Assembly (NCBI GenBank): GCA_000091205.1 | Contig: AP006491.2 | Source of the DNA: Cyanidioschyzon merolae | Taxonomy: Eukaryota | Length of the DNA stretch: 64,000 bases | Reading direction: 5' to 3' (one strand) | Part shown: one piece after another, positions 2,856-58,789 of the stretch | Numbering within the stretch: the stretch's first letter is position 1 | Layout of the letters: each line of letters starts with the position of its first letter | The notes under the pieces: generated by a model | The model's input: only the letters and a program-made list of their open reading frames with translations | The model's database searches: none | Told to the model about the DNA's origin: nothing | Translations under genes and position numbers: made by a program

Positions 2856-2919
2856 CTGTTTGATAGAACGTTTACGCTGTACTTGGGATCTAGATTGCGC
2901 GATGGATATACGCTTTCGG

Positions 2920-20119: not shown

Positions 20120-20735
20120 TAACCGCGCGTTGTGGGGTTTCCATCGTTCCGCGCCCTCCTCGCAAGTTCCGCTTCCCATACGTTCCCTCGGAGGTACCGA
20201 TTATTTTCAAGTTCGACCGTGTGCCGACTGCCCGTCGCGAGCGTCCGCGATAGCGCCTATAGCGGCGGCGCGGTCGTAGCATAGACAGAGAGAACCGACA
20301 TGCCATACCAGAGAGCGCATCGACTCGAGGAATGTCACGGCTGAGTCACGGTCGAGGTTCATGATCATTCTGGGAGCCTGCAAGCTGCGCTGGCAGACCT
20401 ACTGCCTGCGACAGCGCGAATCGATATCCTAGGAGTCCACTGCGACCAGGGCGACGCCCAGATGCAGCTTAACTGTCCCTAGTCCCAGAATGAATTGCTT
20501 TGTGGACGAGTAGCACAGGTTTCTTTCAAGAACGCGCCGCTGGGAGGGGCATGAAGCACGAGCCTGGCAGACTCGTTCGGCTCGCGCTACTTTCCGCCTA
20601 GACGTTAAACTTTCGGAAATACGGAAAAAATTTTCCCCTTTTAATGTTTAATGTAGACGGGGAAAGAAATCGATAGCTCGTTGCTCGTGACTCGTGAGTC
20701 TCTTTCCTTTTTTTTCTAAATAGCGCGGTTGAGAC
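20120..20735 (+). repeat. Dispersed repeat family 'R4', copy 2, immediately 5' of the Fanzor-like element
   Basis: Collinear with 2920..3522. Conserved hairpin at about 20626..20670 (tttcccc-[20 nt]-ggggaaa). Confidence 0.65.
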
Positions 20736-21017
20736 GCGCAATTCAGAGATCTGGCAGTCATGAGATATGACGCGCTTGTCGCCGTTGAAGGGAGACACGA
20801 TCCAAACCTTTATGATCCAGCAGTAAAGTAAAAGTTCTATTTCCGTTGAAGTCGTAGCAAACTGCAGTTTTCAGTTGAATCGTGTTTCAACCCTCAAATA
20901 AGTGTATTCAAGTCCTTTTTCGCGGTTTATAGGAGAAGCGTTCAAAGAGCGCCCTTTTTCAAAAAAAATAAAAAAGGAAATGTTATCAAAAACCAAGTCG
21001 ACGATCCTGGAGGCCAA

Positions 21018-21359
21018 GTGTCGCTGGCTGCCAGAAAAAACAAAAAACAGTACCGAGTCCAGAAGAAAAGAAAGAGAAGAAGGACCGAAAGGAGGGAGGT
21101 CCTACGTCGAAGGCTGCAAGAAAGACCACACTACAACGAACTGGTTATGAAAGCCTGTCTTCTTGAACAGATCAAGGTTCCGTGCAAGAAAAAGTTACGA
21201 GAGTCCATTCGAAACCGTTTTGAGCCGAACTCCATGACTATAATACAGGTGTCGTCAGGACTAATGCATTTGGCGGGGGAGATGTATCGCGAAGTGACGC
21301 ACATGGAAACGGTCCAGCTTCCGAACGAGTTTTCGACGAGACCTTTATTCGTCACATGA
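21018..21359 (+). CDS. Element ORF1: basic, NLS-like protein (KKRKRRRTERR). Its TGA stop overlaps the ATG of the nuclease ORF (ATGA)
   Basis: The ORF is conserved in copy C (44013..44501, MHIAKEMYRNVTHMETVEVPDEF..) and copy B (33303..33581, minus strand). The start codon is uncertain: the track start is GTG, and a further ORF at 20902..21150 in another frame may belong to the same protein. The ATGA overlap is present in both copy A and copy C. Confidence 0.4.
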   Translation: MSLAARKNKKQYRVQKKRKRRRTERREVLRRRLQERPHYNELVMKACLLEQIKVPCKKKLRESIRNRFEPNSMTIIQVSSGLMHLAGEMYREVTHMETVQLPNEFSTRPLFVT

Positions 21360-24133
21360 CGATTGGTACAGCGGAAGCGCGGAGGGAAAATGAACGCGTG
21401 CACGTCCTGCACGAAAAACACCTCTTTTACAGCTTCGAGGGTACTCGGTATACAGGTGACGCGGATATTTACATGTACGGGGCGATGAAGTACCTGACGA
21501 ACCTGAAGAACCATGTGACGATGAACCTCGAACGTTTCATGATACGCGCCGTGTTTGCGCTGTACCCGGGAATCTCACGCAAGGGGATATGGGCGATTAT
21601 CAATGGCGCCACGAACGATCGCAGGCATGAAGATGAGGTCGAATTTGTCGAGAAGAAGGCGTCAAACGAGAGCACGAATGAAGCTTCTGTAATCCGTGCG
21701 GCTATGCAAGAGCACGGCGCAGTCATGGGGCTACCGAATCCAACAGAAAAGATGTCAGAGTTAAAAAAAGATAAGGAAAGGTACTATCGCCTCATCCTGC
21801 GCTATTTTGTGTTTCTGAATCGTGAACTCGAACGCAAGGCGGAGATGAAGCTGAGTGAAGAGACAAATGAAGAGTGGGAGAGACGGAAGGCTTTCCTAAT
21901 GGGGAAGCAGTTAAACGTGGTTCCGTTGTGCAACATCAAGTAGTATTTTGTGAGTATCGATTCAGGCGTCCTTTACGGCATCATGAAGGAGATCAGTCCG
22001 GGGTTCAATGTTAGCAGGGAGGACTTCATCGGTGAAAACCGGGAGACGTACTGGAAGAGTATCTTCGATTTCAAACGTCTCAAAGTCAGCAAACAAAAGT
22101 TATTCACTGGGATGATCGAAACCGATGGCGTAGCCATGTGTGCACACTATCGGCGGTTGAAGAAAGAGTGTCCAGTTCCACCCTCGGCTGCACCCGTGAC
22201 GAAGGATGAAGAAAACAAAGAAGAGGATCCTGCGATGCAGGAGGTGGAGGATAACGACTTTGTCGTTGACATTACGAAGGATGAAGATGAGAAGACGGCG
22301 GATCCTGCGACGCAGGAGGTGCAGGATAACGGCTTTATCATTGGCGCGGCGAAGCATGAAGAAAACAAAGAAGAGGATCCTGCGACTCAGGAGGTAGAGA
22401 ATAACGACCTTGTTGTTGACATTACGAAGGATGAAGATGAGAAGACGGCGGATCCTGCGACGCAGGAGGTGCAGGATAACGGCTTTATCATTGGCGCGGC
22501 GAAGCATGAAGAAAACAAAGAAGAGGATCCTGCGACTCAGGAGGTAGAGAATAACGACCTTGTTGTTGACATTACGAAGGATGAAGATGAGAAGACGGCG
22601 GATCCTGCGACGCAGGAGGTGCAGGATAACGGCTTTATCATTGGCGCGGCGAAGCATGAAGAAAACAAAGAAGAGGATCCTGCGACTCAGGAGGTAGAGA
22701 ATAACGACCTTGTTGTTGACATTACGAAGGATGAAGATGAGAAGACGGCGGATCCTGCGACGCAGGAGGTGCAGGATAACGGCTTTATCATTGGCGCGGC
22801 GAAGCATGAAGAAAACAAAGAAGAGGATCCTGCGACTCAGGAGGTAGAGAATAACGACCTTGTTGTTGACATTACGAAGGATGAAGATGAGAAGACGGCG
22901 GATCCTGTGATGCAGGAGGTGCAAGATAACGACCTTGTCGTTGACGCGACGAAGCATGAAGAAAACAAAGAAGAGGATCCTGCGACTCAGGAGGTAGAGA
23001 ATAACGACCTTGTTGTTGACATTACGAAGGATGAAGATGAGAAGACGGCGGATCCTGTGATGCAGGAGGTGCAAGATAACGACCTTGTCGTTGACGCGAC
23101 GAAGCATTAAGAAAACAAGAAGGCGGATCCTGCGATGCAGAATGTGCAGGATAACGACTTTGTCGTTGGCGCGGACCCTGGGAATACGAATATCATAACC
23201 ATCGCTGTACCCAAGCGTGCGGAAGATGGTACTGAAGGTAATTTACGTCAGAAAGACATGCGTCTTTTGAGATTCTCGAGGGCAAGATATTACCGAGAAT
23301 CCGGTATAATGAATGCGAGGAAGAAAATCGAGACTTGGAATTCAGGAATGAAAGAGCGCCTGGAAGCTTTGAGCGAGGTGACGAGCCGCGGAGCGGATTA
23401 TGAAGCTTTTCGGAGATTCATGGAAGTTCGTGTTGCCCATTGGGATGCGCTGTGGAAGGAGTATACAAAGCCCAGTTGGGCTCGTCTGCGAATGAATCTG
23501 TACGGTGTGAAGCAGCGGGCGTTTGCGAATTTTTTCAATCAGTTGAGCGCCCTGAAGGAGGATGAAAGTCAGAGGCTCGTAGTAGCATACGGAGCAGGGC
23601 GATGGAAGACCCAAAAAGGGACTACGCCAGCTCCAACGACAAGAACGTATAAGGAGTGCGCACGGCGTTTTGCCTCGATACCTATAGACGAGTTTCAAAC
23701 ATCGTATACACACCATGAACTGAGGTGCACACTCCAGAGGGCCGAGATGGAAAAGTGCCAGACGAACCCTGAGGATATGAAAAAGTACGGACCGCTGACG
23801 GAAGAGCAAATGGAAAGGAGGACGAAAGTTCGAAGATTATTTGTATTAGTAAGTACAACCGATGACGGCAAGAAACGCATGGAATTCGTGAACCGTGACT
23901 TTAACGCCGTTATCAATCTAAGGAGATGTGCGGTGCTGGAGAAAAGATCTCCAGATTCGACAAGAGGGAACTTTGTTGGACAACCTATCCAAGTCGAACT
24001 ATATGAGAAAAAGTTGGAAGCAGTAGTGAGTGGCTGGTCCATAGAGACGGGGAGGCGTCTGTACGTCAGTTGGAGACTTCTTGTCAAGGGCGGGTTTCTC
24101 GCCACTACTGTACACTGCTGTCGTTCGACTTAG
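21356..24133 (+). pseudogene. TnpB/Fanzor-like RuvC-nuclease ORF (about 925 codons) interrupted by two in-frame stops (TAG 21941..21943, TAA 23108..23110)
   Basis: A single reading frame runs across 21356..21943, 21950..23110 and 23135..24133. RuvC-I-like motif: NDFVVGADPGNTNIITIAV. TnpB 'YTSQ'-like motif: IPIDEFQTSYTHHELRC. RuvC-III-like motif: FVNRDFNAVINLRRCAV (the D-x-NAA-x-NI pattern of TnpB/Cas12/Fanzor). The TAA lies where every other repeat unit has GAA. Confidence 0.65.
22230..23107 (+). repeat. In-frame tandem repeat, 75-bp unit (25 aa), two alternating subtypes forming a 150-bp higher-order repeat, about 11.7 units
   Basis: Units DPA(M/T)QEV(E/Q)DND(F/L)VVDITKDEDEKTA alternate with DPATQEVQDNGFIIGAAKHEENKEE. 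The unit resembles the sequence just before RuvC-I (MQNVQDNDFVVGADPG). This periodicity generates the long antisense ORF at 22100..23107. Confidence 0.85.
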
Positions 24134-24249: not shown

Positions 24250-25563
24250 ATGCTTGAACGCGGTACGCTAGAAGCGGCGAAGACTGAAACGCCCGCCTCT
24301 CAAGCGGTTGTTTCGGATCACTCGGAAATAGATCGCGTCCGCGTAACGGTAACAAGCCGGGATCGACCGGGTATCACCGCAGCTATTACAGCTGTGGTGG
24401 CGCGATGCTCCTGTGAGATCCTCTCCGTGCGTCAAGTATGCGTGCGTCGACGTCTAACCTTGATGTTTGAGCTTCTAGTGAAGAACGCGTTTCCACAACA
24501 GTCTATCTTTCGTGAGCTTCTATTAGTCAGCAAGCGTATCGGAGTGTCCGTCGATTTCTCGCTACAGCCGTCAACAGAAATATCTTCCGCTGAGGCTTGC
24601 ATGCTGCAGCACGCGTCAGAGCAGTACGTCATTACCGCTATCGCGGCGGACTCGATTACTCCGGCGTTTCTCGCTGATCTTGGGCAGAAATTGCAAGAAC
24701 GGAACTTTGTTCTCGAGTCGGTGAACAAGTTGAGCCAGCATCGCCTCGGCTGCATTGAACTGGTGGTTTCATCCCCGGCGTCCTCGTCGTCCAGCGACAT
24801 TCAACAGTTTCGCTCGGAGATGTTTGTGCTTGGGCGCAAGTACGCGACCGATGTCGCCGTGCAAAAAGAGAGTCTCATCCGCAAAAGCAAACGCCTCGTG
24901 GTCATGGATATGGATAGCACGCTGATCCAACAGGAAGTGATTGATGAGCTCGCTCGCTATGCAGGCAAATTCGAGGCGGTGCAGGAAATCACGCACCGAG
25001 CCATGTGCGGGGAACTCGACTTTAGAACAAGTCTGTACAAGCGCGTGGAATGCTTGAAGGGAACGCCCGCCACCGTCTTTCAAAAGGTGATCGATCATCT
25101 GGTGTACACGCCTGGTGCGCATTTCCTGGCACATTCCTTGAAACGACTCGGGTACAAACTGGCAGTCATTTCCGGGGGCTTCGCTCCGATTGCCCAGCAC
25201 GTGCGACAGACGCTCGGACTTGATTATGCGTACGCGAACCAGCTGGAAGTTGGTCCGGACGGGTGTTTTACGGGCCGAACGGTGGGCCCCATTGTCGACG
25301 GCCAACGCAAGGCAGACCTCTTGATGGCCATCGCCCAACAGGAGCAGATCGACCTCGAGCAGACAATCTGCATTGGTGATGGAGCCAACGATTTGCCAAT
25401 GTTATCGATGGCGGGTCTCGGCATCGCCTTCAATGCAAAGCCTGCTGTCCAGGAGCGGGCAGCTTTTCGTCTCAATCGCCAAAGCCTCGACTCTGTCCTC
25501 TATTTTCTCGGTATTCCAGAATCTGAGCAGATTCAGTTACGAGAGCACAACGATGCATCGTAG
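24250..25563 (+). CDS. serB: Phosphoserine phosphatase (N-terminal ACT-like regulatory domain plus a HAD-family SerB domain)
   Basis: HAD motif I VVMDMDSTLIQQEVIDELA. Motif III-IV ICIGDGANDLPML. An ACT-like segment DRVRVTVTSRDRPGITAAITAVVA. ATG start at 24250 and TAG stop. Confidence 0.9.
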   Translation: MLERGTLEAAKTETPASQAVVSDHSEIDRVRVTVTSRDRPGITAAITAVVARCSCEILSVRQVCVRRRLTLMFELLVKNAFPQQSIFRELLLVSKRIGVSVDFSLQPSTEISSAEACMLQHASEQYVITAIAADSITPAFLADLGQKLQERNFVLESVNKLSQHRLGCIELVVSSPASSSSSDIQQFRSEMFVLGRKYATDVAVQKESLIRKSKRLVVMDMDSTLIQQEVIDELARYAGKFEAVQEITHRAMCGELDFRTSLYKRVECLKGTPATVFQKVIDHLVYTPGAHFLAHSLKRLGYKLAVISGGFAPIAQHVRQTLGLDYAYANQLEVGPDGCFTGRTVGPIVDGQRKADLLMAIAQQEQIDLEQTICIGDGANDLPMLSMAGLGIAFNAKPAVQERAAFRLNRQSLDSVLYFLGIPESEQIQLREHNDAS

Positions 25564-35410: not shown

Positions 35411-35669
35411 CAACTACTTGTACTGAGCGATGAAGCGAGCGGTCAAGCGCCACCAAGAACGCCTCAACCTAGTTGTCCAGTTTTCCTTGGGGGGCGAATG
35501 CGCTGCTCCAGGTGGAAACCCTCCTGAAGCGCGGCAAGTGGACGCGCGCTGCATCCTTCCAAAGCGATACATTTTGGGTCAAATCGTACGCTATGAACAG
35601 TATCCACCGCGGGCGCTCCGTCGAGCACCTGCGCTTCCGAACGCGGGTATTCGCGTAAACACAGAGGCC

Positions 35670-37244
35670 ATGTCGGGAGCGTGCCGTGTCACGGCATTTT
35701 GTTTCGCTTCTACTCATATCATCACAAGATCAGAAGAGCGATCGGCTAAAACAAGGTTCATATGGAGATGGCGCGTTCAATGGCGCGCTTCACGCTCTGC
35801 TGTGAACCGGCTTACTTGCACCGCGACCTCACCGTCGTCGCCCAAAACACCAACAACCTCTGCAGACGGGCACGCGCGGGACGGAACAGCGGGCCTGGAA
35901 CCCTTGCGCGTCTACGACCCGGAAGTGTACCAGATTCTCGAGAAGGAGAAAGAACGGCAACGGAGAGGACTCGAACTTATCGCATCGGAGAACTTCACCT
36001 CCGCCGCAGTGATGGAAGCACTCGGATCTGCCTTCACCAATAAGTATTCAGAAGGTTATCCTGGTCGCAGATATTATGGTGGAAACATGTATATCGATGA
36101 AGTTGAGCGGCTATGTCAGGAACGCGCACTCGCCGCGTTCTCCCTGTCGCCAACCGACTGGGGCGTCAACGTACAGCCGTACTCAGGGTCACCGGCCAAC
36201 TTTGCAGTCTATACGGCGCTGCTGAATCCGCACGATCGTATCATGGGCCTCGATCTTCCTTCCGGCGGACATCTAACCCATGGTTTTTACACGGCGAAGA
36301 AGCGCGTTTCGGCGACCTCGATCTACTTCGAGTCGCTGCCGTACCGAGTGAATGAAACCACTGGTTACATCGACTATGATGCGCTGGAGAAACAAGCCGC
36401 ACTCTTCCGACCAAAGCTGTTGATCGCTGGGGGCAGTGCGTATGCACGCGAGTGGGATTACGCACGTTTCCGGCAGATAGCTGACCAGAGCGGCGCGTAC
36501 CTCTTGGTCGATATGGCACACATCAGCGGACTTGTAGCGACCGGCGAAGCACAATCACCGTTCCCCTATGCAGACGTTGTGACGACGACGACGCACAAGT
36601 CGCTGCGAGGCCCCCGAGCTGGAATGATTTTTTATCGCCGGTCAGCGCTGGCAGAAATAGCACCGCGTGGTGCCGACCTCGAGCAGCGCATTCAGGAAGC
36701 GGTATTTCCGGCTTTACAGGGTGGTCCACACAACCACCAAATCGCTGCCTTGGCGGTGCAGTTACGCGAGGTACAAACGCCCGCCTTTCGAGCATACGCC
36801 AAGCAAATTCGACGGAATGCACAGGCCCTGGCCCGACGTCTTGTACAACACGGGTATGATTTGGTGACCGGTGGCACGGAGAATCATCTGGTACTGTGGG
36901 ACCTCCGACCGATCGGAATCACGGGAAGCAAGATGGAAAAGTTATGTGAATACGTGAGCATTACACTGAACAAAAATGCAGTACCCGGTGATACCAGCGC
37001 CCTGAACCCAGGTGGCGTTCGGATCGGCACGCCAGCGCTGACGACTCGCGGTTTTCGTGAGGCGGATTTCGAAAAGGTTGCAGACTTTCTGGATTCATGT
37101 GTGCGGATTGCACTCCGGATCCAGGAACAAAGCGGTAAGAAGCTTAATGACTTTGTCGCAATGCTTCCAGACGATCCAGAGGTGCAAGCGCTCCGTGAAA
37201 GCGTGGAGCGCTTTGCGAGCACCTTTCCTATGCCTGGTCGCTGA
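35670..37244 (+). CDS. SHMT: Serine hydroxymethyltransferase (possibly with an organellar presequence); an alternative upstream ATG exists at 35430
   Basis: ..[20 protein letters not shown]... Motifs [10 protein letters not shown] and [13 protein letters not shown], with the PLP-lysine region TTTTHKSL. Stop codon TGA. Confidence 0.9.
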
Positions 37245-38305
37245 TTCGTTACCCTCAAGCTGATTGCCCTGCTTGGACACGGACCCTCTATCTCTGTCGG
37301 GGGGTATGCACGAATACGGTGGAGGCACCTACACTCGCCCGTACTGTTTCCGGCGCATTCGACGAGAGCAGCGCCCTTATCTTTGTGAATCAGGCGTGGA
37401 CGTCTTCTCAAAGGCACCGCGATGACGCTGAAAGTGGTCACGAAACCCGTACGCAAGCAATAGATGCCGTCTATCGGAAACAGTTGTTCATCGGGGGATT
37501 TGCTCATCCACACGTCTGCACGCGTGGATGTTAGGGTGGAATCCAGCATGCCGGCATGGTAAAAATTCTCACGAATCGTTGATCCTCCGAACCGTCGGCA
37601 TCTGCACGTACAGGTACGGATACTAAAGTCGAATCCTTTATTTTCGTGATCTGTATCCACGCGTCTGGCAGCTCGTGCTCGTCAGCGCGTTTGCCGCAAC
37701 CTGCTGCTCCCTCTTCGGTGGTACGAATGTCGCCCAGCAGATCAGTTTCACCGTATCCGCCAGCCCAAAGTCGACGACGATCACAAAACAGGTCCCGGGT
37801 GCTCGTCACAACGGACCTCCGCTTTCGCGTCTGCGAACGCGAGCATCGAACGCGGAGCTTGCACGGCGCCAGGACGAGCGCTCGTTCATGCACAAACGCA
37901 AGCCTGTAGAAAAGCTTTCTGTGCTTCGTGCGACCTTGCGAAGCGATTTTGCAGGCCAGTGCCGGAACCTCGCCCAACTGATGTACGGCAACGCTGATTG
38001 TGGAAACGAGACAGCAAATTCAGCTGGATATCTGGACCTCTTCCCCTGGCATGTTTTACACGCCGTTCGATCATGACCAGAGCAGCGACTGCAGCGCTGC
38101 GATGCCAATGCGATCGCCAAGAGGTAGCGTCCCTCATCTGCAGGTCATCTAACAATCTAGGGACTGGTCTGTGGCAGCGGTGTGTGGCCCCCAGCGGTTT
38201 GCATTCCTTTGAACTGAAGAGGCACGAGCAGTAGTGGCGTGCAATGCATACGTCGGAGCCTCCTCGACATGAACGCCTTTCTGGGTAATACTCAGACTAG
38301 TGCCT

Positions 38306-38362
38306 TCTAGAGTGCCTGTACCAGCACGCCCGATTTGGTTTTGTTTGTTTTCCTGGCAGGAG
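38306..38362 (+). other. Conserved 57-nt intergenic motif, copy 1 (function unknown)
   Basis: ttctagagtgcctgtaccagcacgcccgatttggttttgtttgttttcctggcaggag is about 93% identical to 53443..53499. The flanking sequences of the two copies are unrelated. Confidence 0.5.
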
Positions 38363-39449
38363 GATCGAGTAGGATGACGAGGTCAGGACCCGTCTCGATG
38401 CTCTGGGTTCCTTTCCGATGAATGAGGACATTTTCTGCGCCTTATTTCGAGCGAATATTAGCGTCCAACTAGCGAAATCGGACAATCTCCGGCTGGAGTG
38501 CATGACATCGTGCACGGGACGCCAACGGTATCCGCAGTGCAGAGACAACAAGCGTGGATTCAAGTGTCTGCTCAATATGTAGGAAATAGAAATGACGAAC
38601 ATGACGTGTCGTTTGGTCGAGGCCCCTGGCTCTGGAGGTGCTGCAACGCGCTGAACCTGCACTTTTGCTCCGTCGACCAGCGCGCACAAAGTGAGCAGGA
38701 ACTGAATCTTTCCATCTCCCATCGATGCAATCCAGACGATTTGAGCGCATCACGAGCACAAGGGCACGTTGAGCGTGCTAGACGACAACAGCAACATCGT
38801 GAAGCAATGACGAATGCACCAGATGATGGAAAGTTAGTTGACCATCCGTTTATGGCGAGGCAGTCGGGGGCAAGAGACTTGCGATGATATGACTCTCCGC
38901 GCAACAGTACGCGCCATGACTTGATGCATCGTGACAGGAAGGCTCCCATCACGAGCGAGGGATGTCTCGTGCTTCCCGGGCGGACGTCCGTCGGCTCGGT
39001 ATCCAGCGAGCTTTCGCAGGAATCGTTTCGTACCAAGCGTGTGCGTTGTGCTGCGATGCGGAAGACTTGCGCTCACGAAATCAGTGCCTGGGAGAGGGTC
39101 ATAGATTCCCGTCTGGCTCAAGGCCCTGGCATGATACGGGGTCACCAATGCGGCAAGGCTGGTACGTTCTATGCATACATCGGGAACGGTTTCCCAGGTA
39201 ATCGGTGAACAAGAATGGTGCCATATCATTCAGTAGTACTGAATATTGGTATATATAGGCAGAACGTTTCACCGTAAACCTCTGATGGATTCCTAAAGCA
39301 ACGTCAGACTGAATCGGATCGGGTCCGTTCAGATAACCCGAGTGTTTACGCTCAACATGAGGGTCTCTTCTCCTTGTCATCAACATGAGCGTTTTGCGCG
39401 CTTCCACTGCGAATGCTTCCTTTTTCTCTCGCTTATATGCGGTTTTCAG

Positions 39450-40500
39450 TGTGCCGGTCTCTACGATCCCTCCAGCTCCGATGTCAGCTGTTGGGGAGAG
39501 TTCATGAGAGCGTGTGAGTCCCGCTCTCGTCGCTTCCTGCTGTTGTCGACGCATTGCATGCCGAGGCTCAAGTGACGATCTACATATCGATTCCCATTTT
39601 CACCGTCTTTGTAGATAGCCTTGATGCGCTCTTCGCAGCGCTGTTCATTCACTGAGCTCAGGTGCTCCCATCTGTCCACCGACTTTGCTTCTCAGAGCAT
39701 TGCCAACCTCTATAGTGTTCGAAAGCTTCGTTCATCTCGTTCGATGCCGTCCTCCGTTTCCGCGCTCGGTGCCGTACCGTGCGATCATGAGCAACTTCTG
39801 TATGAAAACTACGGCGACTGCGCTGTCCTCTGCACGTGGGAGCGCGCGCTGTTCCATGAAAGCCCGTCCTTGTGGAACGCAATGTTGTCCTTGATGAAAC
39901 AAGTACCGAGAAGCAAAATCCAGGATACAGAACATGATAACGAATTTCGATGTTCCGGTGCCCCGTTCGAGCTAAGCGATGCTGCACGCTCCACTGGAAA
40001 CAATCGCTCCGATGAATCTAGTCCGAGTCCGAGACGCTCTTTTACGAAAACAGCAGAAATGCGAGCTTCTCGCAACGTATCAGAGGAGAAGTATCATGCC
40101 GTTGTCGAATGGCGTCTTATCGATGGGAACAAAGATGGAAAAATCTAGTTTTTGAACGGAACAGATGATTCAACTTGACAAGTTCCGTGAAGTTTCGGCT
40201 TATACTTGTGACCGAATCGTTCACGGACGACCTCGAGTATCTTTCCTCGTAAACCTAGCGGTGCAAAGGGCTGCACCCATGATTTGCCTTGAAATAAAGA
40301 GATCGAATCCCTGAAGGATTTGTGACATGCGCGTGCCTCATATAAAGAAAAGAGATGGGCGGAGGCTTTGCCTCATGAATTCGATGATGATATCGGTAAT
40401 TTCACGAACCTTCGTTCGGCGGCGTCGCCAAACATCCTGAATCCGGTGACGTAACAAAAGCCAACGGCAAAGCGTCGTAGCAGGCACTTCACCACTGAGA
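39450..40500 (+). repeat. Dispersed repeat family 'R3', copy, containing an intact 175-codon ORF (39621..40148)
   Basis: Homologous to the 13.1-14.1 kb and 46.0-47.2 kb copies (..ccgtaccgtgcgatcatgagc.., ..ttgtggaacgcaatgttgtccttgatgaaacaag.., ..gagaagtatcat..). Terminal motif atccggtgacgtaac..agcgtcg (40447). Confidence 0.55.
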
Positions 40501-40860
40501 ACGCTGAGCCTACGTATGCATCCGCAAGCCCTTCGTGCAGCACTCGAAATTACAATTCTATACATGTACATACGGTTCGGAAAAAAATCTCAGGGCATGA
40601 ACAGTGCGACCAGTTCCATGTTTCAGTTTACTCTGACACGCGTCCTAGTGCAGGTAGCGGGGTGCGAGCTTCAGCGGCATCGTCCTCGCTTGACCAAGAA
40701 GCCTTGTAGTTACAGCGGGCGCGCTCCGATGCCTGAACGTCATCGCGAGCCCATCGGACAAGTTCCGCACTGAACGCCAATAACGCAACCCTCGTATTCG
40801 TCTTCTGCGTGTTGTGCAGGAGCCCGCCCTGGCAGCGGTTTCTGCAAAACTCGGCACCGC

Positions 40861-43341
40861 TCAGAGGACCTGTGGCACATCCACGGGACAAGGACATGAT
40901 ACGCGGGCAGCGGGTACCGGTCCTGGCCCTGGTTCCGCTGACGACGGCACCTCAGCCATAACTTGCGTACTGCGACGACGAAAGCGACGTGCTTGGTGGC
41001 ACACGCTGCGCACCATGGTGCCGCTCTCGGGTCCAAACAGATGCCGAGATATACCATCACGAAGCCCTGTTGCAGGACGTTCACAGAATGAGGCAGGTAC
41101 AGCCTGTGCTTCCCACTCAGTCCAAGTCGGGGAACGATTCAGCGCACCAACAAGCCCAGCGAGACGACGAGTCGCAGCCGTCCGAGCCACTTTTTCTATA
41201 TCCTCGACAGGCTCATGCCTGGTGTTGGTACCGCTCAGCGAACCAACAGCTGACGTACTCGAGGAGCGTGTGCGCACACCAGGTCCAGAGTGGCTCGCTG
41301 CATCCGCAGATGACGATCCGAGCGCTTGCGTTCCAGAAAGTGTTCGTGGACGCGACGCTGACGCCGTCACCGATCGGACATCGTCGAGGACTTTTCGAAT
41401 CTCTGACAAGTCCGTAGCATCGGGCAGCGCGCTGCGGCGTGTGCGTTTCTGTGGCGTTTCCGGCGGTGACATCACCGGCGTCGCCAGCCCTGCAGCCGGT
41501 GACGACTCCACATCCGAACTCGGGCACGCTGCCGTTGGTGCACCAGAATTCCGAGACCCGCCTGCGAGCGGCTGGGATAACGGCGTGCTCGACTTGACTG
41601 TCCGCTCAGGCGTTTTCAGCGCTGCTGCTGCTGCTGCTGCTGCACCTTTCTGTGAACGCAATGACCAGTGCGGGCCTGCCGTTTGCGCATGCGTCGAGAG
41701 CTCATCCAACATGGATGCGCTCGCAGGTGAATGACCTGATGAGGGAGTTTCGCACCTCAGGTCTCGCAATTTGGGTTCTATCTGGACCAGGTAATGCTGT
41801 TGGGCTCCGATCACAGATCCGGGGCGGCACAGCCGACACCAGGCAATGGCCTCCGTTGCCGTAAAGCCGTACATGTGCATCAAAGCACAGCACATAAGCG
41901 TTCCAGTGCGTCCAAGGCCGGCCTTGCAGTGAACCGCAACGGCACCCGGTTCATCCGCGCAAATCGCCAGAAAACGCTGGACGATATTCCAGTCCGGACA
42001 TGCACCGTCCGCAAAGTACAGATCGTAGTGACGAAATCCCGCTTGGCGAAAAACACGCGCGTCATAGCGTCGCCGGTTCAGACGTACCACAGCAGTGACG
42101 CCAAACTGCTGAAAGAGGCGAATAAAGTACTCGGGAGCACAGCCCACGCCGATGTCTGTTGCTTCCGGGCAGCTCGTCGGACCCGCGAACGCCAGCAGCT
42201 TACCCGGAACAATCCAGTTCAGGTCGCCGTTGTGTACTTGCTCCCAAAGCTCATATGATTCGATATCGAACGCATCTGGTGCGAAGAGGTGGCACACATT
42301 GGTCGCCCGATGCCAAGCGCTGATGCAGTCAAAGACGCCCAAAGGGAACGAGGATTCCGGACCAGCAGATGCATCGCGAAAGAAAACCAAAGAGCTTTTG
42401 AGACGCTGGAGTTTTGCATCGGCCTGTTCGGGGAGATCTCCAAGGCGAAGAACGCGATAGGCGCCCACCAGGGCTGCTGCGTTCGTCAAAGACTCTAGAT
42501 CATCTGTACAGAGCATGATGGCGATAGGAGACGCCCTGCCGGGGACATTGTCCTCCACGAAAGATCCTTCATCTCCGTCGCTAACAACAGTTTTCGGAGC
42601 GTATGCAAGATTGTGTTTCACTCCCTCGCCTTGGACTGCGTTGCCTCGCAGTGCTCCGTCGCACATACCCCGAGGCATCAAGACACCGTCCGTGCGTCCT
42701 TGCCAGAGATGCAGCTCTCGGACGATACTTTCAATACGCTGAATAAACCGCATGGTCTGCGCGAGATTGTATGGTCCAAAGTCGTTACAGAACGCCTCGT
42801 ACACAAGGTCGTCCTGGACGGAAAACAAAAGTCCAGCCAGGTGTCGAGTTCGGTTCGAGCGAGCGCCGCCACCTGCGGTGTCCGCAGCGTCCGCCTGCGG
42901 CCGGAGCGGCGTGCCGTTCGCAGTCGCTTCTGCGAAGAGCCCCAACAGCGTCGGCGGTGCTAACAACCGACAGTCCGGAGTGCGTCTTTCGCAGCATCCT
43001 CGATCGATGCTTTCAGATACTGGCCGGTCTTCAGGGTCTCGGGCGCGTACCGACCACGGAACCAGGTACACGAGACCAGGAACAACCTCAGCATAGAGCT
43101 CTAGACGAAGATGCGATCGCAGTTCTGGCCTCTGCTCCAAGGCAGAACGCAGCCAAGGAGACATCCAAGCCCATTCTTCATATGCACAGTGGGTTCTTTG
43201 TTCGTCGCCCTCAAAGCAACTGCTGCTTCGCTGCTCTGAGGGTTCCTCAGCTCCGCCCGGTCCCGCGCTTGTTCGCACGCGCTCCGACACAGACTGCGCC
43301 CTGCTCTGCTGGCGGGTGCGATGCGCAACACCGACCATCAT
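40861..43341 (-). CDS. CDC14: CDC14-type dual-specificity protein phosphatase with a long Ser/Ala-rich C-terminal tail
   Basis: A CDC14-type N-terminal domain (..LVYEAFCNDFGPYNLAQTMRFIQ..). Catalytic loop VHCKAGLGRTGTLMCCALM. ATG start at 43341. Confidence 0.85.
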   Translation of the reverse strand: MMVGVAHRTRQQSRAQSVSERVRTSAGPGGAEEPSEQRSSSCFEGDEQRTHCAYEEWAWMSPWLRSALEQRPELRSHLRLELYAEVVPGLVYLVPWSVRARDPEDRPVSESIDRGCCERRTPDCRLLAPPTLLGLFAEATANGTPLRPQADAADTAGGGARSNRTRHLAGLLFSVQDDLVYEAFCNDFGPYNLAQTMRFIQRIESIVRELHLWQGRTDGVLMPRGMCDGALRGNAVQGEGVKHNLAYAPKTVVSDGDEGSFVEDNVPGRASPIAIMLCTDDLESLTNAAALVGAYRVLRLGDLPEQADAKLQRLKSSLVFFRDASAGPESSFPLGVFDCISAWHRATNVCHLFAPDAFDIESYELWEQVHNGDLNWIVPGKLLAFAGPTSCPEATDIGVGCAPEYFIRLFQQFGVTAVVRLNRRRYDARVFRQAGFRHYDLYFADGACPDWNIVQRFLAICADEPGAVAVHCKAGLGRTGTLMCCALMHMYGFTATEAIAWCRLCRPGSVIGAQQHYLVQIEPKLRDLRCETPSSGHSPASASMLDELSTHAQTAGPHWSLRSQKGAAAAAAAALKTPERTVKSSTPLSQPLAGGSRNSGAPTAACPSSDVESSPAAGLATPVMSPPETPQKRTRRSALPDATDLSEIRKVLDDVRSVTASASRPRTLSGTQALGSSSADAASHSGPGVRTRSSSTSAVGSLSGTNTRHEPVEDIEKVARTAATRRLAGLVGALNRSPTWTEWEAQAVPASFCERPATGLRDGISRHLFGPESGTMVRSVCHQARRFRRRSTQVMAEVPSSAEPGPGPVPAARVSCPCPVDVPQVL

Positions 43342-43964
43342 CTCCGTCGTGCCTGTGCAGCTACTGAAAGCTGATAAGCACAGGACAAAAGTTCAGAGGC
43401 TACAAACACGTCTTTGCATCCACGTCCGAGCACACATTCGTCAGGGACGCTGCAAAATAGACCCCCGATGGATCCGCCTCCGATGCCGGGGAGTGTAGGC
43501 CCCGGTGCGCTTCGACGGCCTTGTTTCGTTGTTCGCAGCCGCAGCTCGATGCGCGATCTCCGGCGGATGCGCGCCTGCCGTGGACGTAACGGTCGCGCGA
43601 TGCTACTGGGCCTTGCATCGCATACGACTCAAATGTACAGAAATGTTCAAATTGATACGGCGATCGTTACGAGCGCGTGTGCGTGCGATTTGGCTGTGAT
43701 GGAAAAACGTGTCCATGGACTGTGGATGGCCCAAATTGCGGGATAGGTGAGCATTGACATTCGGGAAAGCGTCCATCATGCTGCGCAATACTCACGCCCA
43801 AGTTCTATTACCTATGCTTCCTATTTTCTATATGGTGCGCTTGATATTTGCACCTCCAGATCTGACATGCATTGAACACGTCGCGCATGTCGCCGCTTTA
43901 GGGAAACGCGATACTGATCATCAGCGTGACGCTCGAACGAACAAGTTGTATTTGCGTCAAATTC

Positions 43965-45941
43965 GTACCAAAGTAGAGTGTTTATCCCAATCGTGTTTCA
44001 ACCATCAAGTACGTGTATTCAAGTGGTTATTTGCAGTTTGTATCAGAAGCGTTCAAAGAGCGATATAAAAAAATCAAAAAATGGAAAGTTTCGGAAGAGG
44101 AAGAGGAGGATCCTGGAGGCGGAGTATCACCGGCTGGCAGAAAAAAACAAAAGACAGTGCAGAGCGAAGAAGAACAGGAAAAGACGAAGAAGCAAAAAGG
44201 AGAGGCTCTACCTCAAATGCTGGAAGAAAGACGACGGTGTGACGAGATGGTAGTGAAAGCCTGTCTTCGTAAACAGAACAAAGATCCGTACAAGCAGGCG
44301 TTGCGGGAGGCCATTAGAAACCGTGTTGAGTCGTACTGTAGGAGTATTCGTAACGCTTCTTTTGGACATATGCATATAGCGAAGGAGATGTATCGTAACG
44401 TGACGCACATGGAAACAGTCGAGGTTCCGGATGAATTTTTCAACGAGAACTTATTCGTCGCTTGCTGGTTGGCACAGGGGAAGCTTCGACGAAAACAATG
44501 AGCGAGTGCATGCTCTCCACGAACATTGCGCCGAATTTCGCTTCAGCGATACTCGATACAAGGATGTCCGGCATATTTACACCTACGAGCCGATGTAGTA
44601 CCCGACGAACCTGAGGAACCATTTGACCAAGAACCTCAAACGCTTCGTGATACGCTCCATCTTTGCACTATACCCGGGCCTCTCTCGCAAAGTGATTGAG
44701 GATCATAGTCGATGGCATCGTTAACGATAGTAAGAATGAAGAGGAGAACGAATTCGTTGAGAAGAAGACATTACACAGGGGACAGAATGAAGCTTCTGGA
44801 ATCCGTGCGGCTATTCAAGAGCACCGTGTGGTCGTGGGCCTGTTCAACCCAGCAGAAATGGTATCCGATATGGAATAAGATTAAGAAAGATGCTATCCCC
44901 TAATCCTGCGGTTTTTCGTGTTTTTGGACCGAGAACTCGAACGTAAGGCGGAGATGGAGCTGGGTGTCGTAAAATGAAGAGTCGGAGAAACGGAAGGCTG
45001 CCCTAATGGGAACGCGCTTCAACGGCGTTCCATTGTGGAACATCAAGTCGCACATTGTGACCATCAACTCCAGAGTCCTTCACAGCTTAATGAAAGAGGT
45101 CACCCCAGTGTTCGATGTCCATGAGGAGGAGTTCAGCAAAGTGACAAGCCGCGGAGCGGACTTTCGAGCCTTCCGGGAATTCATGGAAGCTCAGGCTGCT
45201 CATGACTGCGAGATGTGGAAATGGTCCGGAAAGCCCCGGAGGGCCCGTCAGCATGTGAACCTGTATTGTGGCAAACAGCGTGCATTCACCAACTTCTTCA
45301 ATCAGTTGAGCGTCCTCAAGGTGGTCAAGAGTCAAAGGATTGTAATATCGTACGGAGCAGGGCGCTTTGTACCCGGAAGACGGAGCGCACCCGCTCCATC
45401 GACACGAGCGAACAAGGAGTGCGCATACCTGTTTATTCCATTTCCGATAGATGAGTTCCGAACGTCCTATGTGCACCATGAGCTGAGATGTGCATTCCAG
45501 AGAATCGAGTTGGAGAAGTGTCAGCAGAGCCCTGAGCAAATAGAAAAATACTGTGCGCTAACGGAAGTGCAAATGGAAAGGAGGGCGAAAGTTCGACGGC
45601 TACTCGCATTAGAGAGTACAATCAACGGCAAGAAACGTACGGAGTTTGTGAATCGTCAATTTCACGCTGTTATCACAATAATGAGATGTGCGGTGCTGGA
45701 GACGAGACCCGAGGAGTTGACGCGAACCATCTCTGTGGGGCAGCTCCTCAAGGTCGCATTGTACGGAGAGAAGTTGAAACCAGTAGTTGCAGGCCGGTCA
45801 AAAAAGGCTGGGAGGCGTCTGCACGTCGGTGGGAGACGTATTGTCTACGTCGGGCGGTTTGCAGCTCGCCACCACAGTACACCCGTTATGCAGCGTACGC
45901 CGACTGAAACGCAATCGCTTCTTTGTCACACAATTTTGTAA
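43965..45941 (+). mobile_element. TnpB/Fanzor-like element, copy C: a degenerate copy lacking the RuvC-I and tandem-repeat region
   Basis: ORF1 homolog 44013..44501. The nuclease-ORF homolog 45006..45941 jumps from ..VHEEEF directly to SKVTSRGADFRAF (equal to copy A at about 23380), a deletion of roughly 1.35 kb. It keeps IDEFRTSYVHHELRC, but RuvC-III has degenerated to FVNRQFHAVITIMRCAV. It also carries extra stops and frameshifts. Confidence 0.65.
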
Positions 45942-45949
45942 GCATAAAG

Positions 45950-47180
45950 TTGAAATCGCTCCTTGAAGCATGCACTCGTGCACTCTGAATTTTGGGTATT
46001 GCCCCAGCGTTATCAAAATTGCCCCTTGGTGGATGGTTTTGCAGCTGCCTCCTTTTCTCTCCATCATCTCCGCGTTTGAAAACGTCGGTCTCTCGAGTCC
46101 CTACAGCTCTGCGGTCCGCAATCAAAGGTTCTTGATGGCAGCGTGCAAGTCCTTATTTCCCAGCTTCCAGGTGCAATCGACACCTTCTATTCACAGGCGA
46201 AAGTTGCGATACACGCATCGCTTGACATTTTCATTCGTTTTTTTGGACAGGTTCGGTGCTTCCTACGCAGCGGTGACATTAGAATGCTATCGGATGCTCC
46301 TACGCGTCCACCAATTTTCCTCATGCTCTGACCACCGACCTATGGCGCGTAAAGACTTGAGTCATCGCTCGGCACATACCATGGACGGCTAGACAAGGCG
46401 ATTCGCCTCGCGCTCCTCTGATTCCGAGCCCCGTGTTGTACGCTACGATGACGGGGTTCTTCCGGGCGATCCCTTCGGAGACTACTTTGTCCAGTGCACA
46501 CGCGAGCGTATGCTGTCCTCTTCAAGGGCGTATTTGTAGAACGCAATGCTGTTCACGATGGAACGAGTACCGGAAGCGAAAAATTCAGACTGTAGAAAAA
46601 CGTGACCCAAGAACTTCGATCCTGCTGCGTGCCCTTTGTGCAAAAGCGACGGTGCGCCCTCCAATGGAATCCATCTCGACGATGACTCAGGCCCGAGTCC
46701 GAGACTCTTTTCCATCGAATCACAAGAACTGGGAGCCCCTGTGACCATATCCCGTGATACACGTCATGCTCGTGTCGATTACCATGTCGTCGAGGGCTAC
46801 AAAGAGAAGAAGCATCAAATTTCGAACAGAGTCGATTATATGACGTGAGCCATTCACTTTTCGTTAGGCCTGAGCCCCCAGAGAGGCTTCCAAGGTTCGA
46901 AGCCGATCATGCGTCCGCGTCAACCCAGCGGAACGGAATCCTGGTCCCAGACGGTGCTCTGAACGAGAAAGAGTGAAAATTTGACGAGTGCATGATTGGT
47001 GGACGGTGCGCGTAAGGAGATATGTGTAGTCGTCTTCGCATGTAATGGATCATGATTCCTGATATTTTACGATTCCGTGTTCGTGGGCGTCGCGAGACAT
47101 CCTGATTCCGCAGACGTAACGCACTCCAGCGGCAACGCGTCGAATGACCCATTCCGATACGACGACAGCGCTTCTCCAAA
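45950..47180 (+). repeat. Dispersed repeat family 'R3', copy, directly 3' of Fanzor-like copy C
   Basis: ..AKVAIHASLDIF.. / ..FGASYAAVTLECYR..LSHRSAHTMDG* matches 13.1-13.3 kb. tgtagaacgcaatgctgttcacgatggaacgagtaccg matches 39.88 kb, with TGG changed to TAG. Terminal motif ttccgcagacgtaacgc..aacgcgtcg (47107). Confidence 0.55.
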
Positions 47181-47490
47181 CGACGTATGATTCCATAATC
47201 CCTTCTCGCCGCACTTCGAATGTGGCGTCTGTGCGCCTAACCGATTTCGGAAATTATCGACAGACCGGAGCAAAGCGAGCAGTTCAGTGTCCCATTCTCA
47301 TTGGACCCGGGCCTCGGCACCGTCGACAAACAGTATGACGCAACCTCGTATGGACGTCGCCCGGCTCATGCCGCAACGCGACGATCGATCAAGGCCGTGG
47401 TCTGGACGATCGTTTGCGTCTGCAGCCTGCCGTAGTTTGTTTGTTTGTTTTGTACTTCCACAGGCGACGTGACCTTGTGCTTCGCGGTAC

Positions 47491-49959
47491 ATGTCTGCTG
47501 AGAGCGACCTGGCTGATGATTTGGACCGGCAGGCCTCATTGACGTCATCGAGGACGAAGAAGATACCCATTCAAGGAACTCGAAACGTCCTCGTTACGTC
47601 CGCGTTACCGTACGTCAACAACGTGCCGCACCTGGGAAACCTCATCGGTGCTGTGCTCTCCGCTGACGTCTACGCGCGCTACCTACGTCAGTGTGGAGTC
47701 AATGTGCTCTACATCTGTGGCACTGATGAGTACGGCACCGCCACAGAAACAAAAGCGAGAGAGGAAGGCGTATCGCCAAAGGCGCTTTGTGACAAGTACC
47801 ACGAACTGCACCGACACATCTACCAGTGGTTCGACATACGCTTTGATCACTTTGGACGAACATCTATCCCTCAGCAGACAGCCATCTGTCAGGAGATATT
47901 CTGGGATGTGTACAGAAACGGCTTCGTCGTCGAGGACACCGTCGAACAGCTCTACGACGCGGAGGCGGGTATGTTCCTCGCAGACCGCTATGTGCGGGGC
48001 ACGTGCCCGCACTGCGGCTACGCTGAGGCGCAAGGAGACCAGTGTGACGCGTGCGGGAACCTTCTGAACCCGACGGAACTGTTGGATCCTCGTTCCGCAC
48101 TGACCGGAAGCGTCCCAGTGCGCCGCACGTCCCGCCACCTTTTCCTGGACCTTCCGCGGCTGCGTGACGAACTGGAGGCGTGGATTGAGCGCTCTGCAGC
48201 TCGGGGGCAATGGAGCGAAAATGCCCTCACGATGACGCGGAGTTGGTTGCGTGATGGTCTCAAAAAAAGATGTATCACAAGGGATCTGCGTTGGGGCGTT
48301 CCAGTTCCACTAGATGGATTCCAAGACAAAGTTTTCTACGTCTGGTTCGATGCTCCGATTGGCTACCTGAGCATCACTTCGGACTACATGGGCGACAACG
48401 AGAGCTGGCGCTGCTGGTGGCAGCAGCCAGACGATGTTGAACTCATTCAGTTCATGGGCAAGGACAATACACCATTCCATACGATCATTTTCCCGGGAAC
48501 GCTACTCGCTACCCGGCGTCCGTTCACCATGCTTTGTCGCTTATCGACGACAGAATATCTGAACTATGAGAGCGGTAAGTTCAGCAAAAGCCGCGGTACT
48601 GGCGTCTTTGGTGACAGCGCATCCGAGACGGGTATACCCGCTTATGTGTGGCGTTATTATTTGGTGGCAAATCGACCAGAGCAAGCAGATTCTGTCTTTA
48701 CATGGACCGATCTGGCTGCAAAGAATAACAACGAATTGCTTGCGAACATTGGCAACGTCGTCAGCCGCGTGGTTGCTTTTGTTCAGAACCAAATGGGAGG
48801 CGTGCTGCCGGCGCTCGCGGACGCCTGGTCACCAGCGCCGCTCGATGAACGCTTGTTCGAGCAGGTTACGGCGGAGTTGCAGGTTTTTCATCAGGCAATG
48901 GCGAATATCGGCTTGAAGGCAGCGCTGCGCTCGAGCATGTCCATCGGAAGACTCGCGAATCAGTACTTGCAGGAAACAAAGCCGTGGGACCTCTTCAAAC
49001 AGGACTCGAAACGCGCAGACGGTGTTCGTGTTCTCGTCATCGCGAGTGCAGTTATCCGCTTGCTGGCTGTGACCCTCGAGCCGTTCCTGGGGTCGGGCTT
49101 CGCGAGGCTGGTTTTCCAACAAATCGGTGTACCCCATGCCGATGAGACAAATCGAATTCCGCAGCGTTTCGATCGATCGCAGCTTCAGGAATGGAACTAT
49201 GGCACCGAATCATTTGCGTTTGGCAAACCACAGCACCTGTTCACGAAGCTGGAACCCAGCTTCATAGAAGAGCTCCGTCGCCATTTCGCGGGACATGTTT
49301 CTGCCAACGAAGGCTCGGCATCGAGTGGTGTGGCATCTTCCGACAGCGAGCTACCTCTGGAACTTCGTCTCGGACGGATTATGCAGTGCAACAAGACAGC
49401 GCAGTCCGATCAATTGTATCAGTTGGTGCTGGATCTAGGCCCCGAGGAGGGATCTCGCCAAGCAGCGGCAAATCTCGGACATGCGTTTCCGATGACCAGC
49501 GACTTGCTCGGCCGCTTCGTTGTCGTATGCTGTAATGTGGAGCGCGCGGTGCTAGGCGGTGTGCAAAGCGAGGCTATGGTGCTCGTTGCAGAGAAGAAGG
49601 CGCGCACAGCGCTCCTAACAGTGCGCCACGCGAATGAGGCTATGCTAGGGGCAAGACTGCTCCCATGGTCAGCGTCTGAATCAGGAAATCCGCACACGGC
49701 ACTGATGAACGCAGCTCCGCTGTCACCCCTGGATCGGAAGGGTCTCCAGAGCCGTCTGAAGGAACTTCGTGTTCGCGACGACGGTGTCGTGATTTGGAAG
49801 CAAAACAAGCCGCTGGCAGCTGTCGTCCGAGATCCCGATGATCCACGTCCTCTTGGAACATCTAGCGACCCCGCGATGAAGCCGTCTACCGCATGGGTCG
49901 TAGTTAGCGCCGAAGCATCCCTGGATGTAGGATTCTGGAATAACGCACGTGTACGGTAG
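47491..49959 (+). CDS. MARS: Methionyl-tRNA synthetase (class I catalytic core plus a C-terminal Myf/EMAP-II-like tRNA-binding domain)
   Basis: HLGN(L) HIGH-type motif PYVNNVPHLGNLIGAVLSADVYARY. KMSKS variant KFSKSRG. Zinc-knuckle cysteines CPHCGY..CDACG. A C-terminal OB-fold-like region ..LRLGRIMQCNKTAQSDQLYQLVLDLG... ATG start and TAG stop. Confidence 0.92.
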   Translation: MSAESDLADDLDRQASLTSSRTKKIPIQGTRNVLVTSALPYVNNVPHLGNLIGAVLSADVYARYLRQCGVNVLYICGTDEYGTATETKAREEGVSPKALCDKYHELHRHIYQWFDIRFDHFGRTSIPQQTAICQEIFWDVYRNGFVVEDTVEQLYDAEAGMFLADRYVRGTCPHCGYAEAQGDQCDACGNLLNPTELLDPRSALTGSVPVRRTSRHLFLDLPRLRDELEAWIERSAARGQWSENALTMTRSWLRDGLKKRCITRDLRWGVPVPLDGFQDKVFYVWFDAPIGYLSITSDYMGDNESWRCWWQQPDDVELIQFMGKDNTPFHTIIFPGTLLATRRPFTMLCRLSTTEYLNYESGKFSKSRGTGVFGDSASETGIPAYVWRYYLVANRPEQADSVFTWTDLAAKNNNELLANIGNVVSRVVAFVQNQMGGVLPALADAWSPAPLDERLFEQVTAELQVFHQAMANIGLKAALRSSMSIGRLANQYLQETKPWDLFKQDSKRADGVRVLVIASAVIRLLAVTLEPFLGSGFARLVFQQIGVPHADETNRIPQRFDRSQLQEWNYGTESFAFGKPQHLFTKLEPSFIEELRRHFAGHVSANEGSASSGVASSDSELPLELRLGRIMQCNKTAQSDQLYQLVLDLGPEEGSRQAAANLGHAFPMTSDLLGRFVVVCCNVERAVLGGVQSEAMVLVAEKKARTALLTVRHANEAMLGARLLPWSASESGNPHTALMNAAPLSPLDRKGLQSRLKELRVRDDGVVIWKQNKPLAAVVRDPDDPRPLGTSSDPAMKPSTAWVVVSAEASLDVGFWNNARVR

Positions 49960-52497: not shown

Positions 52498-53190
52498 ATG
52501 AGTCAGGTGTTCATCCTGAAGCGTGTTTTCAGTCGGTGTACGAGACCGCTTCTACCAGTGGTAGAACGAAACAGCGGAGCAGCGAGCTGCTTCGTCACTG
52601 GGTACCACGGGGCTGCGCTCTCGACGCAAGCGGACACGGTTCCGAGCGTGCGCCCCGGCACCGCTCCGCGGGTGCTCAAGTCGTCTGCTCCATCGCTGCC
52701 GGTGGGCATGCACCCGGAAGGAAAGTTAGAGTATGCCGTATCGAAGCTGGACGACTTGGTGAACTGGGCGAGGCGGAGCTCGGCGTGGCCGATGACGTTT
52801 GGTCTCGCGTGCTGCGCAGTCGAGATGATGCACGCAGCTGCCGCGCGCTACGACTTTGATCGATTCGGCATCATCTTTCGACCATCACCGCGGCAGAGTG
52901 ATGTTATGATCGTGGCCGGGACTTTGACGAATAAAATGGCACCAGCTTTACGGAAAGTGTATGATCAAATGTCGGAGCCGCGCTGGGTCATCAGCATGGG
53001 GTCTTGCGCGAACGGCGGTGGCTACTACCACTACAGTTACTCGGTGGTGCGCGGTTGCGATCGAATCGTCCCCGTTGACATATATGTACCGGGTTGTCCG
53101 CCGACTGCGGAGGCCTTGGTCTACGGTGTATTACAGTTACAGAAGAAGATGAAACGCCAACAGACTTTGCTCGCTTGGATGAAGAAGTGA
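52498..53190 (+). CDS. NDUFS7: NADH:ubiquinone oxidoreductase 20-kDa subunit (NDUFS7 / PSST / NuoB homolog) with an N-terminal presequence
   Basis: ..[16 protein letters not shown].., ..[82 protein letters not shown]... These include the Fe-S cluster N2 cysteines. ATG start and TGA stop. Confidence 0.9.
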
Positions 53191-53442
53191 GCATATCCGC
53201 GCAGCGCATGCAGGATGAAGAGACCGTTTCTTTCCCAAAAGCAAATGCGTGCAGGCAGCTTTTGACGGCAAGGTATGCGACATGAGGCTGTGAATGATCC
53301 CCGCGACCAGGGTTATGGAGATGAGCGACCCGCCGGCGCCTCGAACCTGTGCACAGCACCTCTCGTAGAAGCAGGGGGTGTTCCGGCCCGACCGTGGAGT
53401 CGATGAACGCAGTCTGGTGACTGGCATGCCCAGAGCAGGACG

Positions 53443-53499
53443 TTCTAGAGTACCTGTACCAGCACGCCCGTTTTGGTTTTGTTCGTTTTCCTGGCAGGA
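53443..53499 (+). other. Conserved 57-nt intergenic motif, copy 2
   Basis: ttctagagtacctgtaccagcacgcccgttttggttttgttcgttttcctggcaggag; see copy 1 at 38306. Confidence 0.5.
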
Positions 53500-58641: not shown

Positions 58642-58675
58642 GAATATCGTTAATGATTCGAACGCCAGCAATAAC

Positions 58676-58694
58676 CACACACACACACACACAT
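58676..58694. repeat. (CA)n microsatellite in the 5' leader of the GDPD gene
   Basis: cacacacacacacacacat, read directly from the sequence. Confidence 0.8.
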
Positions 58695-58789
58695 AGACAC
58701 CGTATTTTTCGGATAAGCGAATCTGGCGCATACCGATGCAATCGGATCAGGCGCCAGCATCGCAGCATCGATGCGGCTTCGTATCCGGG

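Follow-up and report, generated by a model that had tools for sequence, protein, structure and literature searches.

The locus holds copies of a published transposable element, CMe-1A of Cyanidioschyzon merolae, for which both a DNA consensus (3169 bp) and the encoded Fanzor1 protein, CMe-1, have been published (Bao & Jurka 2013, PMC3627910). Neither terminal inverted repeats nor target-site duplications are known for CMe-1A (PMC3627910). An interspersed repeat of ~3.2 kb with a WSV486-like ORF, described in C. merolae by Nozaki et al. (2007, PMC1955436), is apparently of the same family.

The window analysed here is a stretch of 64,000 nucleotides in which a sequence-only reading had drawn attention to a 57-nt sequence, nearly identical at two intergenic sites. 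We find that the repeat is real but ordinary in nature, a patch preserved in a pair of paralogous transposon remnants that are lineage-specific. The two copies agree at 55 of 58 positions; the block is 58 nt long, and the first copy starts one base earlier than noted, at 38305. Their common orientation is confirmed, since the earlier consensus matches each on the + strand. That consensus is degenerate and already includes the three variable positions; its exact matches are these two copies, and it had none in 100 dinucleotide shuffles. The claim that only two sites carry the block did not hold, as four copies were found:

38305-38362, + strand: block copy A, 58 nt, fitting the earlier degenerate consensus
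53443-53500, + strand: block copy B, 58 nt, its first base 253 nt past the NDUFS7 stop codon
254-312, + strand: block copy C, diverged and with one additional T, found by repeat search (nhmmer E 2e-21)
1479-1422, - strand: block copy D, diverged and inverted relative to C, found by blastn (nhmmer E 1e-19)

Copy C is 71-73% identical to A and B, and copy D 69-71%. All pairs other than A-B fall between 66 and 73%; thus, the high identity of the block is specific to the A-B pair. No copies beyond these four were detected in the 64-kb window by profile nhmmer on both strands together with the repeat search. Both A and B are unchanged in independent metagenome assemblies of closely related strains. 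We scanned the metagenome collection with a degenerate 27-nt pattern to which every one of the four copies conforms. Of the 71 loci returned, 15 were true matches, all of them orthologues of the four block loci; each locus was recovered in three or four of the main assemblies, and four or more independent assemblies contributed in all. A scan of viral contigs gave chance matches only, confined to the pattern itself.

The window, identified as C. merolae 10D by exact protein matches and lying on chromosome 9, contains the following genes:

24250-25563, + strand: phosphoserine phosphatase gene
35430-37244, + strand: SHMT
40861-43341, - strand: CDC14
47491-49959, + strand: MetRS
52498-53190, + strand: NDUFS7
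55954-58731, - strand: GDPD-domain gene

Block A lies in the SHMT-CDC14 gap (3617 nt), 1060 nt beyond the SHMT stop codon, and block B in the NDUFS7-GDPD gap (2764 nt); both are downstream of + strand genes, in the same orientation. SHMT and NDUFS7 are nuclear genes for mitochondrial proteins. The SHMT frame is open for 604 codons; the NCBI protein has 524 aa, and the longer form appears in several metagenomic gene calls. Just upstream of the start of the GDPD-domain gene (- strand), a 32-nt tandem repeat of ~14 units occupies 58772-59233. The tract before MetRS (47435-47453), which had been linked to the block, shares with it a GT-rich, low-complexity resemblance only, and the block profile misses it; such tracts are no general feature upstream of genes here.

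Distant orthologous loci were reached via NDUFS7 in Cyanidiococcus yangmingshanensis (L089) and in another cyanidiophyte (L090/L091). Both relatives keep the gene order and orientation SHMT-CDC14-MetRS-NDUFS7-GDPD, with far shorter gaps in Cyanidiococcus: 554 nt for SHMT-CDC14 and 168 nt for NDUFS7-GDPD. The CDC14-MetRS gap (43342-47490) is likewise 4150 nt here versus 949 nt in Cyanidiococcus (L089 5965-6912). All three gaps examined in the syntenic block are enlarged by repeat insertions. Queries with the block profile and with entire C. merolae intergenic regions gave no homology to the block or its surrounding repeat in the two relatives; both blocks thus lie in DNA that the C. merolae lineage gained by insertion. 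The insertions at A and B postdate the split from Cyanidiococcus, and the blocks are not ancestral regulatory sequence. At the other extreme, footprinting failed with the strain-level orthologous contigs of hot-spring metagenomes, since at ~99.3% identity they are too similar to the window.

Much of the inserted DNA derives from CMe-1A. Self-comparison of the window revealed many decayed repeats and a reading frame with TnpB-type D/E/D motifs, which agree with those of the published CMe-1 protein. The match to that protein and to the CMe-1A consensus settles the Fanzor identity; searches of the Fanzor ORFs with Pfam, NCBIfam, PHROGs, PDB phmmer and a PDB profile search yielded nothing informative, and an AlphaFold2 model of the candidate protein was unusable (pLDDT 37). 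We also built a Fanzor family HMM from 120 metagenomic homologues and searched it against the six-frame translation. The copies are:

20073-24126, + strand: full-length CMe-1A (consensus 5-3148, nhmmer E 0), with an expanded 75-nt tandem repeat
43698-45908, + strand: CMe-1A with two internal deletions (consensus 2-116, 633-1951 and 2394-3164)
2861-3650, + strand: partial CMe-1A (consensus 4-791)
12468-12796, + strand: partial CMe-1A (consensus 2737-3094)
34448-32997, - strand: partial CMe-1A (consensus 53-1525)
54968-55892, + strand: decayed CMe-1A remnant at site B, consensus 2310 onward (nhmmer 54968-55415 = 2310-2756, weak, E 3e-9)
38363-39250, + strand: decayed CMe-1A remnant at site A, adjoining block A on its 3' side and covering the consensus from about 2339 to its end

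The family HMM matches 54953-55478 in the site B remnant and 38442-38774 in the site A remnant (iE 1e-7), for which this protein HMM alone gave a match, without one by nhmmer to the published consensus. The 75-nt tandem repeat of the full-length copy spans 22120-23244 (~15 units) within the Fanzor ORF, where it encodes acidic repeats; the number of units varies among metagenomic homologues.

The block itself is not part of CMe-1A as published. It occupies positions ~37-95 of a non-coding, low-copy repeat module, here named Y, and neither the block nor Y matched the 3169-bp consensus, whether the profile was searched against the consensus or the consensus against the window. We also considered the block as a decayed piece of the Fanzor ORF and rejected this, as neither the family HMM nor tblastn with N-terminal ORFs gave a match over the block or Y. 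Pfam found no domain in ORFs within Y. The module is represented as follows:

53403-54340, + strand: module Y as found in copy B, with a B-specific segment that may extend to ~55015
38269-38362, + strand: remainder of module Y in copy A, its first ~94 nt only, with the block at the end
218-1515: module Y as a near-perfectly placed inverted duplication, its C (+) and D (-) arms ~640 nt each and meeting near 865
1994-2852, + strand: Y-body copy Z1, lacking the block and followed directly by CMe-1A positions 4-791
11490-12342, + strand: Y-body copy Z2, lacking the block (E 1e-118 versus Z1) and followed by CMe-1A positions 2737-3094

The inverted duplication is seen as an nhmmer self-match of 218-1513 to 1515-220 on the - strand (E 1.5e-48). 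About 270 nt from it, Rfam identifies a tRNA gene at 1781-1884 (-; 47.7 bits), whose 104 nt against a 71-position model imply an insertion or intron of ~33 nt; ARAGORN did not report this gene.

The flanks of A and B had been described as completely different, but they are homologous, though very diverged. Segment 38269-38371 of A aligns with 53403-53509 of B, and 38372-39246 of A with 55018-55892 of B (E 1e-41); compared with B, copy A is missing ~1.5 kb immediately 3' of the block. The first of these homologies starts at ATGAACGC (A 38269 = B 53403) and ends at A 38371 = B 53509, just past ...CAGGAG. Copy B also aligns with the other two block copies, 53431-54278 with D 1491-641 (E 3e-58) and 53348-53820 with C 150-635. 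Upstream of about -36 nt, all block pairs are at the shuffled background (53-56% versus 50±2%), and the homology of Z1 and Z2 begins exactly at TAGCAGGAG, the 3' end of the block. The sharp edges noted earlier have mundane causes: at the 3' side a junction of the module or of a deletion, and at the 5' side the end of a high-identity tract within older, weak homology. At the junction in A, ...CCTGGCAG is joined to GAGGATCGAG (CMe-1A ~2339) via GAG/GAGG microhomology. The sequence ATGAACGC recurs at both ends of the B-specific 1.58 kb (B 53403-53410 and 54989-54996) as well as at A 38269-38276, and the second of the B occurrences (54989) also coincides with CMe-1A positions 2331-2338. Its recurrence could reflect a target-site duplication, deletion microhomology or coincidence with these CMe-1A positions.

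A further repeat, W, is ~1.4 kb long, dispersed and outside the published CMe-1A consensus, with a conserved core of ~100 nt containing GGTGACGTAAC:

39250-40644, + strand: W copy at site A, after the CMe-1A remnant, within a match of 38543-40644 to 45269-47313
45937-47354: W copy
7077-8380: W copy
~12797-14216: W copy
35452-34467, - strand: W copy
52331-50956, - strand: W copy

Copies also occur at three loci outside the window (L092, L093 and L095). W sometimes directly follows the 3' end of CMe-1A or precedes its 5' end, and at other loci it stands alone; the CDC14-MetRS gap holds W together with the internally deleted CMe-1A. No Helitron-like or matching 3' terminus was seen in the W and CMe-1A copies.

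The block and Y are absent from three other Cyanidioschyzon loci that carry full-length CMe-1A (48 kb in total). From this distribution, Y and the block appear to be a small local family within 54 kb and no standard part of CMe-1A. A single composite transposon made of Y, CMe-1A and W was considered and set aside, as full-length CMe-1A occurs at these three loci without Y, and W is separate. Among the earlier suggestions, the end of a mobile element comes closest to the evidence, in that the block is subterminal at the 5' side of a repeat module beside remnants of a Fanzor transposon. The "miniature" part of that suggestion fares worse: the four block-bearing copies all lie within 54 kb and have no inverted terminal partner, which argues that the module is not a typical miniature element. 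The sole inverted block copy, D, belongs to the inverted duplication of the whole module.

Sites A and B, described earlier as unrelated, are remnants of the same dead repeat copy. Their CMe-1A-derived parts are 55% identical to each other, and each is 41-43% identical to the CMe-1A consensus. Relative to that consensus, 188 derived states are common to A and B, while A has 109 private ones and B 106. The common states mark A and B as sisters, derived from a single element that was dead before they split, and each has diverged strongly since then. Against this background the block is an outlier: it retains 55 matches of 58, versus 27-39 in every other 58-column window of the A-B alignment. Transposon-level constraint cannot act on dead sisters, so later transfer of sequence or selection at the host level remain as explanations.

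From these observations we infer, with a modest leaning in its favour, that the 95% identity of the A and B blocks stems from a sequence transfer between these dead paralogues. The sister remnants of one dead CMe-1A copy stand at A and B, each with the Y block on its 5' side, and copy A later lost ~1.5 kb just past the block at the short GAG/GAGG microhomology. The short transfer between A and B would be a later ectopic gene conversion or templated break repair, its tract running to the point where A-B homology ends. A second abrupt tract in the window, which we take as the precedent for such events here, joins 21015-21603 (+) to the inverted CMe-1A copy at 33585-32997, 12 kb apart. Over ~590 nt the two are 95-100% identical, whereas identity is 60-80% up to 21014, and the tract stops at the end of homology; its appearance is that of gene conversion or of a recent partial copy. 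Several observations speak against conversion of the block. Gene conversion requires homology, and the DNA immediately left of the tract is only ~55-60% identical today. There is also no polymorphic or intermediate state, as the sampled strains (~99.3% identical) all carry the same three A/B differences.

Other features of the segment, which also tell against conversion, hint at an older constraint. In the B-D, B-C and C-D comparisons, too, the block ranks at or near the top of all windows for conservation, if by a modest margin. A possible interrupted stem of 8 bp (CCTG..CCAG / CTGG..CAGG) is paired in 30 of 32 cells with two compensatory changes, among four sequences only; its loop is 29 nt, and pairing as good arose in 28 of 500 shuffles. 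Against a function, the predicted folds of all copies on both strands carry no signal (z -0.73 to +0.25 versus shuffles). Rfam 15 returned nothing for the block at gathering thresholds and, in E-value mode (E <= 10), no match other than unrelated models at E 8.1 and 2.6; the ARAGORN tRNA scan found nothing. No reading frame is conserved across or after the block, the three A/B differences show no coding pattern, and a peptide search with all block translations, of low sensitivity, recovered ORFs of the B locus only. The block is not a gene.

The best surviving alternative to conversion is purifying selection at the host level, with the block exapted at both sites after the A/B duplication, for instance as a 3'-region, RNA or DNA-binding element downstream of SHMT and NDUFS7. 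Block evolution is ~10-fold slower than that of the adjoining sister DNA, and the position of both copies downstream of + strand genes in one orientation fits such a role, as does the weak covariation in the stem. Neither block contains a segregating site among strains, which is consistent with selection but not significant (~1.2 expected in each). Nevertheless, the same gaps in the two relatives lack the block, so the genes work without it; block A is separated from the SHMT stop codon by 1060 nt; copies C and D show no conservation; and there is neither a significant fold nor an Rfam match, nor a coding pattern in the A/B differences. With a conversion-like tract elsewhere in the window offering a simpler cause, we regard exaptation as unlikely.

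The block could instead be a cis-acting transposon end, that is, a subterminal 5' recognition site or hairpin of a Y element, perhaps mobilised with pieces of CMe-1A. Copy A would then be an internal-deletion derivative that kept the required end, and the A-B similarity would come from closely related, constrained masters. The module does behave as if bounded here: the four copies become homologous ~36 nt before the block, and the 3' end of the block is both the exact start of Z1 and Z2 and the point where A stops. In four cases Y has a CMe-1A piece of the same orientation on its 3' side, the stem shows weak covariation, and ATGAACGC flanks the B-specific 1.58 kb; CMe-1A lacks known terminal inverted repeats and target-site duplications. 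To our knowledge, the ends of C. merolae Fanzor1 elements have never been defined. On the other hand, A and B are sisters of an already dead element, so transposon-level constraint cannot have acted on them since their split, the three other full-length CMe-1A loci carry neither Y nor the block, the four copies are all local, and no inverted partner or matching 3' end was found. We consider a transposon end quite unlikely. That the block is a selected nucleic-acid element, either the subterminal 5' hairpin by which Fanzor1-associated repeats are moved or a sequence exapted downstream of SHMT and NDUFS7, is in our estimate distinctly improbable.

A 3' splice site was also considered, with the block as an intron end in which a T-rich tract precedes CAG/G. 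All four copies do end in a pyrimidine- or T-rich run followed by YAGG, but reading the sequence revealed neither a branch-point-like element nor a 5' splice-site partner, the DNA after the block keeps no reading frame, the surrounding DNA is decayed transposon sequence, and only ~0.5% of C. merolae genes contain introns; we give this very little credence. The terminator suggested earlier finds no support. A gene for a small structured RNA, be it an snRNA, a spliced-leader RNA or another kind, or the promoter of such a gene, has the sharp A-B conservation as the one point in its favour and is hardly credible given the absence of Rfam matches, fold z-scores near 0 on both strands, the decay of copies C and D and the lack of the block in the syntenic gaps of the two related species.

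For gene function these results have little import, as the block is neither a hidden RNA gene nor a conserved regulatory site. Their value is for annotation: this region of chromosome 9 is pieced together from decayed CMe-1A/Fanzor copies and at least two modules, Y and W, outside the published consensus, and because of this mosaic its intergenic regions are 4-16 times the length of those in Cyanidiococcus. The C. merolae genome is known for efficient homologous recombination, and the two abrupt tracts of high identity point to an exchange of sequence among its transposon remnants. Such exchange, if it does occur, could mislead estimates of repeat age and searches for motifs.

Comparison with known systems places the block as follows. 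It differs from IS200/IS605-type subterminal hairpins in that its stem has a 29-nt loop and no thermodynamic signal, with neither a Y1 transposase nor a right-end hairpin found, although it resembles them in that a stem, interrupted and possibly conserved, lies close to an element end and next to a TnpB-like gene family. Its relation to MITE-like internal-deletion derivatives is similarly mixed: in copy A a terminal ~94 nt is joined to a distal part, with microhomology where the two meet, whereas MITEs are set apart by terminal inverted repeats, clear target-site duplications and amplification, none of which is seen for these four copies in 54 kb. As to CMe-1A, both blocks lie immediately 5' of decayed CMe-1A sequence, yet the block and Y fall outside the 3169-bp consensus and are absent beside full-length copies at other loci. 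Compared with ectopic gene conversion tracts between transposon copies, the block is very short (58 nt) and the identity of its flanks very low today; like them, it is a short near-identical patch in old, diverged paralogues, with one edge sharp, the other at the end of homology and a second tract nearby. The closest kinds are a conversion tract between transposon remnants and the terminal fragment of a non-autonomous repeat next to CMe-1A.
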